From: Thermoplasmatota archaeon
GTDB taxonomy: Archaea; Thermoplasmatota; SW-10-69-26; JACQPN01; JAJPHT01
Length of the DNA: 64,000 bases
Direction of reading: 5' to 3'
Assembly: GCA_035526585.1 (NCBI GenBank)
Contig: DATLCC010000087.1
Coordinates: forward strand, 80-64,079
Both the position numbers and the translations under genes were made by a program. This document shows, piece by piece, positions 54,816-63,185 of the stretch. The notes below the pieces were generated by a model. The model searched no databases and was not told the origin of the DNA. It saw only the letters and a program-made list of their open reading frames with translations. Position 1 is the first letter of the stretch; the number at the start of each line of letters is the position of its first letter.

Positions 54816-54878
54816 GGGCCGAAATTTTTCTGCGGAAAAATTTCGGGTCCCCGCAGCGGCAAGGATGGGGGTGACGGG
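54816..54878 (+). repeat. Solo copy of the 62-bp palindrome-tipped repeat
   Basis: Its core at 54819-54846 is identical to the one at 51540-51567. The tail is GTCCCCGCAGCGGCAAGGATGGGGGTGACGG. The core starts 6 nt after the stop of ORF 54207..54812, so it may act as that gene's oligo-T terminator. Confidence 0.85.
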
Positions 54879-54945: not shown

Positions 54946-55029
54946 GCCGAGGTGGCAGAGCGGCCCAATGCGCCAGTCTTGAAAACTGGTGGGCGCAAGT
55001 CCTCGCAGGTTCAAATCCTGTCCTCGGCG
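54946..55029 (+). tRNA. tRNA-Ser (anticodon UGA), class II with a long variable arm
   Basis: Hand-folded. The acceptor is GCCGAGG/CCTCGGC and the anticodon stem is CCAGT/ACTGG with loop CTTGAAA. The T arm is GCAGG-TTCAAAT-CCTGT and the discriminator is G. Confidence 0.9.
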
Positions 55030-55053: not shown

Positions 55054-55173
55054 GCCGGTGGGGCGGCCCAATGCGCCCGTCCCGCAGCTTGCTGCGGCGT
55101 GCGGCGCGCCCGCGGGTACGCCGCGTTGAAAACTGGTGGCAAGTCCTCGCAGGGTCACGTCCTGTCCTCGGCG
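55054..55173 (+). pseudogene. Aberrant tRNA-Ser paralogue with a 44-nt GC-rich insertion in the anticodon loop and a degenerate T-loop
   Basis: It aligns to the intact gene 25 nt upstream (GGCGGCCCAATGCGCC..TTGAAAACTGGTGG..CAAGTCCTCGCAGG..CCTGTCCTCGGCGC). There is a 2-nt deletion in the 5' acceptor and an A-to-C change in the anticodon stem. The insertion is CCGCAGCTTGCTGCGGCGTGCGGCGCGCCCGCGGGTACGCCGCG, and the T-loop is GTCACGT instead of TTCAAAT. Confidence 0.55.
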
Positions 55174-55190
55174 CTTCCACGATCGCGGGT

Positions 55191-61894: not shown

Positions 61895-62506
61895 GTGGAA
61901 GGATATCACCATCGCCAGCCGTGCGACCTCGGGCACGTGCTCGCGGCCGGCCACAAGCTGAAGATCGTCAAGGTGTTCTGGGACCAGCGCGGCCGCCTCG
62001 TGCATCGCACCTCGGGGCCGTTGCCGCCGATCGGAGAAAAGGCGCAGCTCCACGTGGACCAAGACAAGCGCGAGCTGCGGGCCCGGGCGCACGCGGCGCT
62101 TCACCTCACGATCACCGCCGCGAGCGAAAACTATGCGACGTTCACGGAGCCTCCTTTCCTCGTGGGCGGTGGCGAGGCGCGCCTCACGTGCCGCTTCCGC
62201 GACGACCCGCGCGTCATCCTCCCGAAGGTCATCGCGCGCGCGCAGCAGCTCGCCGACGCGCGCGAGGACATCGCGGTGAAATGGGCGCCGCGCGACGACG
62301 CGGTGAAGCTCGCAAGCCACGCGCCGGTGCCCTTCGAACAGGTGATGCCAGGTGAGCCCACGTTGCGCCTGGTGCAATGCGGGAAGCGGAGCCTTCTGCC
62401 ATGCGACGCGCCCTTGTGCGATCACACGTGGCAGATCGGGCAGCTGAAGCTGGGCCTCGTGCAGATCAAGGCCGAGGGCGTGCGCTTCGGCGTGAAGGTC
62501 GTGTAG
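61895..62506 (+). CDS. AlaX-like (COG2872-type) putative aminoacyl-tRNA editing / metal-dependent hydrolase, divergent
   Basis: Contains HxxxH (AHAALHL) and C-terminal LCDHTWQIGQLKL, which resembles the CGGTHV..EIG segment. The same frame is open upstream to 61766. That upstream stretch encodes TEYLFWTNP..FTLDRSVFHA..QPCDLGHV, resembling the conserved N-terminal barrel. The true start is therefore probably near 61784, where only CTG is available. Confidence 0.55.
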   Translation: MEGYHHRQPCDLGHVLAAGHKLKIVKVFWDQRGRLVHRTSGPLPPIGEKAQLHVDQDKRELRARAHAALHLTITAASENYATFTEPPFLVGGGEARLTCRFRDDPRVILPKVIARAQQLADAREDIAVKWAPRDDAVKLASHAPVPFEQVMPGEPTLRLVQCGKRSLLPCDAPLCDHTWQIGQLKLGLVQIKAEGVRFGVKVV

Positions 62507-62552: not shown

Positions 62553-62681
62553 TCACTTCTGGGTGAGCTTGGCGAGGGCTGCGACGCGGATCTTTTCGCG
62601 GGTGAGTTTGGTGGGGTCGCAGAGGTGGCTGGGGCCGCGCATCTTGTGGCCACAGTTGGGGCAGGTCGCCTTGGCGGGCAT
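62553..62681 (-). CDS. 42-aa CPxCG zinc-finger micro-protein
   Basis: It falls below the ORF-track size cutoff. The sequence is MPAKATCPNCGHKMRGPSHLCDPTKLTREKIRVAALAKLTQK. A TATA-like box (CGCTTATCT on the minus strand, 62705-62713) lies about 28 nt upstream of the ATG. Codons are GC3-rich. Confidence 0.45.
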   Translation of the reverse strand: MPAKATCPNCGHKMRGPSHLCDPTKLTREKIRVAALAKLTQK

Positions 62682-62822
62682 GGGCGCGCGAAGGAGGGTC
62701 CCCCAGATAAGCGTTGGCCGCGTGGTCCAGCTGTGACGCGTCTTCGGCGCTGGCTGAGAATCGTCTTATAGGGGGACGGGGTTCATCGGCGCGTTCCAGG
62801 GGTCGTTCCTTGGGGCGAGAAA

Positions 62823-62896
62823 GGGCTCATGGTCTAGTTGGTTATGACATCCCCTTGACATGGGGAAGATCCCCAGTTCGAATCTGGGTGAGCCCA
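62823..62896 (+). tRNA. tRNA-Val (anticodon GAC)
   Basis: Hand-folded. The acceptor is GGGCTCA/TGAGCCC. The anticodon stem is TCCCC/GGGGA with loop TTGACAT. The T arm is CCCAG-TTCGAAT-CTGGG. Confidence 0.9.
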
Positions 62897-62956
62897 CTCG
62901 CCCGCCCTTCGGGCGGGCTCGTGAAGGAGGGCCCTGCGGGGCCCATCATACGCACC

Positions 62957-63077
62957 GGGCGCTTAGATCAGTTGGTAGATCACTCCCTTGGCATCGGCAG
63001 TCGACGCGTGCTGCGGCACGCGTCTCTGCCGCACTGCTGTGCGGAGAGGCCGCGAGTTCGAATCTCGCGAGAGCCCA
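62957..63077 (+). tRNA. tRNA-Ala(GGC)-like gene with a 48-nt intron-like insertion after the anticodon; aberrant acceptor (possible pseudogene)
   Basis: The 5' half, through the anticodon loop (GGGCGCTTAGATCAGTTGGTAGATCACTCCCTTGGCAT), is identical to the intact tRNA-Ala 156 nt downstream. An insertion lies at 62995-63042 (CGGCAG-TC-GACGCGTGC-TGCG-GCACGCGTC-T-CTGCCG..). The T arm is intact. The 3' acceptor is AGAGCCC, giving G3:C70 instead of G3:U70, one G-A mismatch and one extra nucleotide. Confidence 0.5.
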
Positions 63078-63112
63078 CCGGAGATCGGCCGGACGGAACC
63101 GATCGACACACC

Positions 63113-63185
63113 GGGCGCTTAGATCAGTTGGTAGATCACTCCCTTGGCATGGGAGAGGCCGCGAGTTCGAATCTCGCAGCGTCCA
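63113..63185 (+). tRNA. tRNA-Ala (anticodon GGC)
   Basis: Hand-folded. The acceptor GGGCGCT/AGCGTCC contains the G3:U70 identity pair. The anticodon stem is CTCCC/GGGAG with loop TTGGCAT. The T arm is GCGAG-TTCGAAT-CTCGC. Confidence 0.9.

Follow-up and report, generated by a model that had tools for sequence, protein, structure and literature searches.

A hairpin-interrupted tRNA-Ala(GGC) look-alike between tRNA-Val and tRNA-Ala in a Thermoplasmatota archaeon, most likely a lineage-specific pseudo-tRNA

The tRNA-Val, twin and tRNA-Ala locus

The window, by which we mean the whole stretch of 64,000 nucleotides analysed here, is contig C87 of a metagenome bin from a Thermoplasmatota archaeon (2.66-Mb assembly, 130 contigs, 69.7% GC, 86.5% complete). 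Near its end, an intact tRNA-Val(GAC) is followed by a 121-nt tRNA-Ala(GGC) look-alike, hereafter the twin, and by an intact tRNA-Ala(GGC) (Table 1). The initial annotation of this DNA described two tRNA-Ala-like genes with an identical 5′ half, and the two sequences, starting at 62957 and 63113, indeed match at 38/38 positions. The 5–6 nt of upstream flank said to be shared shrink to four strictly identical nucleotides (CACC) before a mismatch. Viewed as a direct repeat, 62950-62997 and 63106-63153 pair over 48 nt with two mismatches and comprise 7 nt of flank and positions 1–38; one mismatch belongs to the flank (ACGCACC vs ACACACC) and the other directly follows T38, which leaves an identical run of 42 nt that extends from the 4 nt of flank through T38. 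A second shared block of 26 identical nucleotides (63043-63068 = 63152-63177) comprises positions 40–43, the variable loop and the T arm; the T arm is thus intact, as originally described.

Between these blocks, the twin carries the 48-nt hairpin insertion noted after the anticodon, a palindrome occupying 62995-63042. It folds as CGGCAG-TC-GACGCGTGC-TGCG-GCACGCGTC-T-CTGCCG followed by a CACTGCTGTGC tail, with an outer stem at 62995-63000 / 63026-63031 and a core hairpin, GACGCGTGC-TGCG-GCACGCGTC, at 63003-63024. A further hairpin, CCGCAC-TGCT-GTGCGG, is possible in the tail.

The 3′ end of the twin (63064-63077) reads CTCGC-G-AGAGCCC-A, where the intact tRNA-Ala has AGCGTCC-A. All described features of this aberrant acceptor, namely the AGAGCCC strand, the G3:C70 pair, a G-A mismatch (G5-A68) and an extra G between positions 65 and 66, were recovered, and the covariance model alignment marks the mismatches; the intact gene has G3:U70. 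The likeness of this 3′ end to tRNA-Val holds up. The twin differs from tRNA-Ala at 68, 70 and 74 and has the tRNA-Val base at 3/3 of these, giving the octamer GAGCCCAC. From the 3′ acceptor of tRNA-Ala itself it is also only two substitutions (C68A, T70C) and one G insertion away. Both the acceptor stem and the anticodon stem of the twin are defective. The Rfam tRNA model, whose cut-off is 29 bits, gives the twin 30.0 bits, with four non-standard pairs and an insert of 52 nt; this is the lowest score among the matches listed for the genome, where the other tRNAs range from 43.8 to 72.7 bits. ARAGORN does not call it with or without the intron option, and reports a tRNA-Ala(GGC) once 44–49 nt are deleted in silico.

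Between 62690 and 63185, the sequence outside the tRNA bodies contains a single A/T-rich octamer, the box upstream of tRNA-Val (Table 1), and a scan of the tRNA-Val–twin–Ala region found no T-run before 63260. The twin is probably co-transcribed with tRNA-Val and tRNA-Ala from this putative promoter. Upstream of tRNA-Val, between it and an AlaX-like gene, lies a 42-aa ORF on the minus strand (62553-62681) with a CxxC...C motif (MPAKATCPNCGHKMRGPSHLC...), which has no entry in the protein collection. Proteins of the neighbouring genes were looked up by exact match only, and nothing was returned.

Table 1. Coordinates of the tRNA-Ser and tRNA-Val–twin–Ala features in the window
Feature	Position	Strand	Remarks
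tRNA-Ser(UGA), intact	54946..55029	+	partner of the Ser twin
tRNA-Ser twin, decayed	55054..55175	+	directly after tRNA-Ser(UGA); also in sister species G004
TATA-like A/T-rich box TCTTATAG	62764..62771	+	some 55 nt before tRNA-Val; presumed to promote a Val–twin–Ala transcript
tRNA-Val(GAC), intact	62823..62896	+	65.8 bits, Rfam tRNA model; 3′ end GAGCCCAC reappears at the twin 3′ end
Spacer S, 60 nt, tRNA-Val to twin	62897..62956	+	two hairpins inside; last bases ATCATACGCACC, similar to the end of spacer J
Hairpins of spacer S	62900-62918; 62929-62944		inverted repeat search; the second is GGGCCC-TGCG-GGGCCC
Twin, whole	62957-63077	+	121-nt tRNA-Ala(GGC) look-alike
Twin 5′ half, positions 1–38 with anticodon GGC	62957..62994	+	38/38 identical to intact tRNA-Ala
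48-nt insertion in place of G39	62995..63042	+	near-perfect palindrome
Twin positions 40–65 (3′ anticodon stem GGAG, variable loop, T arm)	63043..63068	+	26/26 identical to intact tRNA-Ala
Twin 3′ acceptor strand, aberrant (extra G, AGAGCCC, discriminator A)	63069..63077	+	mismatch marks in covariance model alignment
Spacer J, 35 nt, hairpin GATCGG..CCGATC	63078..63112	+	unique in the genome; ends ATCGACACACC, like spacer S
tRNA-Ala(GGC), intact, G3:U70, no encoded CCA	63113..63185	+	67.4 bits, Rfam tRNA model; orthologues in all relatives

Distribution among relatives and the tRNA-Ser counterpart

The arrangement Val(GAC)–46–76 nt–Ala(GGC), with an intact tRNA-Ala and no twin, was found in 8/8 relatives examined: four species of the same genus (G001–G004), three other genera of the family (G006–G008) and one member of another family (G010). 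By PurF amino-acid identity to the source genome, the same-genus species rank G004 (87%), G001 (81%), G003 (80%) and G002 (75%), so that the twin is absent even from the closest relative. Given its absence from all eight, the twin is a young, lineage-specific addition of 156 nt. The comparison shows Val–spacer–Ala as the ancestral arrangement, to which the source genome adds 156 bases that include a second tRNA-Ala copy. Wider searches agree in their own scope: pattern scans for a tRNA-Ala(GGC) with a 30–60 nt insert after position 38 returned none in 185,579 species genomes and none in JGI metagenomes, and neither the twin nor the insertion sequence was found in 60 relatives. An order-wide search with the Rfam tRNA model covers the best 150 matches only, a list outside which weak, twin-like matches would lie, and a search for normal tRNAs with the 3′ end AGAGCCCA used a pattern one base off and is uninformative.

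The AlaX-like ORF, placed about 450 nt away by the initial annotation, ends at 62506, 451 nt upstream of the twin. In G003, an AlaX-like gene likewise precedes the tRNA pair, which has no twin there, so the proximity reflects ancestral synteny and is unrelated to the twin. As in the source genome, the distance between PurF and the tRNA pair is no more than about 2 kb in G002, G003 and G004. A search for related loci with the AlaX-like protein found no relatives.

The tRNA-Ser pair earlier singled out alongside the twin is also real (Table 1). In the Ser twin, a GC-rich hairpin of 44 nt interrupts the sequence at 32/33; in addition, the 5′ acceptor is broken, the variable arm has lost 3 nt and the T loop is mutated. 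Its counterpart in G004 (L024 1583-1735) bears an insert of homologous sequence at the same site, and no Ser twin is present in G001, G002 or G003; it therefore arose in the common ancestor of the source species and G004. In its 3′ half, the Ser twin is identical to the gene of its own genome at 45/51 and 50/51 positions, compared with 38–41/51 between genomes, and this excess of within-genome identity shows concerted evolution by gene conversion with the adjoining gene. The 5′ acceptor strand is broken differently in the two species. Extra conservation of the insert was considered and rejected, its 36/47 (77%) identity between the source species and G004 being about the neutral rate given by purF third codon positions (72%). 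The Ser twin thus behaves as a pseudogene partly refreshed by its neighbour. A match to the Ser insert on contig C227 of G004 lies in coding sequence and was dismissed as chance.

Other partial tRNA copies were observed. In G005, which belongs to another genus, a third, partial Ser copy (L037 401-535) follows tRNA-Ser(GGA) and tRNA-Ser(CGA); about 35 nt of its 3′ end are identical to the CGA gene, and an insert of about 60 nt with two hairpins lies in the variable arm, not in the anticodon loop. In the source genome, a 27-nt copy of a tRNA-Gly anticodon arm (C66:331-357, 26/27 identical) lies beside long GC-rich hairpins, about 70 nt upstream of tRNA-Gly(UCC) (C66:190-260, minus strand). Taken together, the Ser, Gly and G005 copies indicate that local partial duplication of tRNA genes is recurrent in the family, and the pattern first proposed from the Ala and Ser loci, an intact tRNA next to a hairpin-disrupted copy, extends to these cases.

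The intron question and the nature of the insertion

The initial annotation placed the insertion near the canonical 37/38 intron site and suggested that splicing would yield an RNA with an alanine anticodon and no AlaRS identity pair. The genome encodes the tRNA-splicing endonuclease EndA (PF01974 and PF02778) as a single 371-aa protein, with two stretches matching the N-terminal domain and three the catalytic domain, and the A. fulgidus homodimer is among its best solved relatives. EndA would therewith resemble the two-unit, strict type, for which cleavage has been reported for canonical motifs only (PMC5829648). A canonical 51-nt BHB intron is present at 37/38 of tRNA-Tyr(GUA) (C12:11736-11862, minus strand), and EndA together with this intron identifies the genome as archaeal. 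This tRNA-Tyr is missing from the matches listed by the genome-wide scan with the Rfam tRNA model.

With its intron option, ARAGORN produces dozens of false intron-containing tRNAs in this 70% GC genome, of which only tRNA-Tyr is genuine; the intron-type calls for Val, Ala and Gln fall in sequence that looks coding, and a tRNA-Pro call at C17 falls on a repeat that encodes protein. Caution is warranted in annotation: a pipeline that permits long introns, or that relies solely on the Rfam threshold, would report the twin as a second, intron-bearing tRNA-Ala.

Splice motifs were searched with an hBHBh′ scanner that models an outer helix, a 4-bp central helix, two 3-nt bulges on opposite strands and an inner helix. 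The scan works, since the same script recovers the canonical tRNA-Tyr intron exactly (h = 5, H = 4, h′ = 2), with a 5-bp anticodon stem, the central helix CTGT/GCAG and the bulges AGA and ACA. Across the whole Ala locus, the strict scan gave six matches vs 7.5 in shuffles, and none of the six joins exons into a tRNA. The minimum-energy fold of the twin is one long irregular hairpin, at −41.1 kcal/mol for the anticodon arm. The two nearest BHB-like folds at the insertion reach −23.2 and −21.3 kcal/mol, about 18–20 kcal/mol above that minimum, and in both, the outer helix has only 2 bp and does not line up with the anticodon stem. Moreover, the insertion does not lie at 37/38 itself; it replaces G39, and therefore no precise excision restores the anticodon stem: removal from the twin always leaves a C31-C39 mismatch or the wrong loop length.

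A BHB-dependent intron was consequently rejected, there being no hBHBh′ motif, no usable relaxed motif and no stem or loop restored by ligation; on all features testable from sequence, the intron reading fails. The proposed route to an alanine-anticodon tRNA without the AlaRS pair falls with it, given also an EndA apparently of the strict type and the absence of the twin from the eight relatives. As far as BHB motifs go, the locus matches the alternative that had been named for such an outcome, a pseudogene or recombination scar. The insertion does share with archaeal BHB pre-tRNA introns a typical length (48 nt), a place in the anticodon arm of an archaeal tRNA-like gene, and a host that possesses EndA and a genuine intron. 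Unlike such introns, whether at 37/38 or non-canonical, it lacks the two 3-nt bulges 4 bp apart, takes the place of position 39 so that the stem cannot be restored, and resides with an endonuclease whose apparent type is limited to canonical motifs. A C/D-box or H/ACA guide RNA within the insertion was likewise set aside, inspection revealing no box C/D motif and no pseudouridylation pocket.

Turning to the hairpin itself, the genome holds 933 perfect hairpins with a stem of ≥7 bp and a 4-nt loop, 136 of which have the loop TGCG/CGCA, on 74 distinct stems and usually with a C:G closing pair; every other loop occurs ≤29 times. About 70% of the C(TGCG)G hairpins lie outside crude gene calls, with no strand bias. 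Examples in the window are found at 62929-62944, 63003-63024 (the core of the insertion) and 54816-54850, and such hairpins also occur in the normal Val–Ala spacers of this species and of G002. By its loop type and the presence of these spacer hairpins, the insertion is built like the ordinary intergenic hairpins and unlike an intron. It resembles REP or MITE-like hairpin repeats in its GC-rich perfect core hairpin with the genome-wide C(TGCG)G loop, and a two-hairpin layout, as in the repeats at C4 and C25 described below, is possible for it. The insertion is not demonstrably a copy of any repeat family, and no significant copy was detected elsewhere in its own genome (nhmmer E > 30; local alignments in the background tail).

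Several repeats were observed among the hairpins of this genome. One sub-family of C(TGCG)G hairpins consists of the repeat GGCCGAAATTTTTC-TGCG-GAAAAATTTCGG. At C80:8363-8501, a 47-nt tandem repeat in 3.1 copies separates two paralogous genes for small membrane proteins; its hairpin, GACGCGTC-TAAG-GACGCGTC, holds the stop codon of the upstream gene in the loop, and the array ends with a C(TGCG)G hairpin and then a T-rich tract. Three consecutive hairpins, two with a TGCG loop, make up another repeat, about 120 nt long, which occurs in at least three copies (C4:11900-12040; C4:14690-14830, inverted; C25:18640-18780). Kinship of the insertion with the C80 or C4/C25 repeats was rejected, the likeness being architectural and without statistical support.

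Origin of the twin

Most likely, the twin is a lineage-specific pseudo-tRNA of a known general kind, found only in this archaeon's genome. That it is non-functional, and arose as a by-product of local duplication within the Val–Ala pair in one species lineage, we consider probable. Like other locally duplicated tRNA pseudogenes, it lies beside its parent gene, is absent from relatives, and consists of blocks of perfect identity broken by indels, with defects in the acceptor and anticodon stems; concerted evolution with a neighbouring gene, a property of gene-converted tRNA pseudogenes, is demonstrated at the Ser locus. It departs from typical members of this group in being a mosaic of an Ala body and a Val-like 3′ end, and in carrying, as the Ser twin also does, a long palindromic insert exactly at the anticodon-loop border. 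The presence of a 44–48-nt hairpin at this border in two independent twins is a coincidence that local duplication does not fully explain.

As for the event itself, a specific mechanism is put forward tentatively, at somewhat less than even confidence. Possibly, an unequal crossover or template switch took place between the adjoining tRNA-Val and tRNA-Ala at AGTTCGAATCT, which their T loops have in common. The product would have had the order Val, spacer S, a chimera of the Ala 5′ part and a Val-like 3′ end, a copy of the spacer, and Ala, as is seen in the locus today. In the upstream, chimeric copy, the 48-nt palindrome may then have been gained or have grown where the anticodon loop ends on its 3′ side; hairpins with such a C(UGCG)G loop are plentiful in the intergenic DNA of this genome. 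Gene conversion with the intact tRNA-Ala would keep the 5′ half and T arm identical, while the unmatched parts diverged. A transcript of the twin would perhaps be trimmed by RNase P and RNase Z, and would be neither spliced nor charged by AlaRS nor used in translation.

The flanks of the twin bear on this proposal. When the tRNA-Val 3′ end plus spacer S is compared with the twin 3′ end plus spacer J, the two align at both ends (P about 0.006) and beat >99% of shuffles, a signal confined to the ends; within the interior, spacer J has no significant similarity to spacer S (P = 0.63). The 3′ strand of the twin T stem is of the Ala type, not the Val type, and this strand and the extra G mean that the crossover model needs a later conversion tract or a junction at microhomology. 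A simple tandem duplication that included the downstream flank was rejected, as the sequence 3′ of the twin resembles that 3′ of the intact gene only at shuffle level.

The changes in the twin are unevenly placed, three lying within 8 nt of the acceptor and none in 71 nt elsewhere. This distribution is less even than neutral decay would suggest. It could be a trace of selection, for instance against aminoacylation by AlaRS, an enzyme that does not read the anticodon. Together, the Ala and Ser loci offer a dated example, in a GC-rich, hairpin-dense archaeal genome, of how tRNA pairs duplicate, take up palindromes and become partly homogenised through gene conversion; a speciation event separates the older Ser twin from the younger Ala twin.

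Integration of a mobile element is the best-surviving alternative, although we judge it unlikely. The 48-nt direct repeat would then be the att core of a pTN3-like integrase targeting 5′ halves, and the 108 nt between the repeats would be what is left of the element, or of an insert-bearing attP resembling a tRNA. Tyrosine recombinases cut at anticodon-loop borders and pTN3-like integrases use the 5′ half (PMC8371274); here, the Ala repeat stops precisely where the anticodon loop gives way to the stem on its 3′ side (38/39), and that of Ser starts at 32/33. Sugahara et al. 2012 (PMC3293823) provide a precedent, where an intact tRNA gene came to be preceded by a 5′ tRNA fragment, and an insert was gained, through integration of an element. 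The twin resembles integration-derived fragments of this kind (PMC3293823, PMC8371274) in its 5′-half direct repeat upstream of an intact copy, in the repeat end at the anticodon loop, and in the extra sequence inside the tRNA-like copy. It differs in having no associated element or recombinase gene: only 108 nt separate the repeats, containing no gene or ORF and consisting in part of tRNA-Ala again, and among them is a 26-nt T-arm block identical to the host gene, a feature superfluous in an att arm. The tyrosine-recombinase domain PF00589, including any XerA-like gene, was found nowhere in the 86%-complete assembly, an absence that may reflect that completeness, and IMG/VR contains neither twin-specific sequences nor the 5′ half.

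An assembly artefact, in which two strain variants or a mis-threaded 48-nt repeat were joined in tandem, is a possibility to which we give little credence. The source genome is a metagenome bin in 130 contigs, and the Ala twin occurs in no other assembly searched. Against this, the unique 35-nt spacer J links the 3′ end of the twin to the intact gene, a junction that a collapsed bubble cannot create; an analogous Ser twin is present in the independently assembled genome of another species, G004, and a further twin in G005.

Least probable by a small margin, and in our estimate very unlikely, is that the twin gives rise to a functional tRNA-like RNA, either by losing its insert through a non-BHB route to yield an alanine-anticodon tRNA unrecognised by AlaRS, or as a non-decoding, tRNA-shaped processing, decoy or regulatory RNA whose anticodon arm is extended by the hairpin; the Rfam threshold passed by 1 bit, the ARAGORN call after in silico deletion, the non-uniform distribution of changes, a Ser twin older than a speciation event and the probable location within a Val–Ala transcript speak for it, and the lack of a BHB motif with an EndA apparently of the strict type (PMC5829648), the broken acceptor and anticodon stems, the absence of the Ala twin from the sister species and seven other relatives, a Ser insert conserved no better than the neutral benchmark and a Ser 5′ acceptor broken differently in two species speak against it.

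Only as a long shot, the hairpin-interrupted twins (Ala, Ser in two species, and Ser(CGA) in another genus) may form a lineage-specific class of expressed, tRNA-shaped non-decoding RNAs, or mark a hairpin element that inserts at anticodon-loop borders and is tolerated only where a spare copy exists. The synthetases of both alanine and serine tRNAs ignore the anticodon, and a disrupted Ala or Ser copy would thus still be charged unless its acceptor were disabled; disabled acceptors are what is seen.
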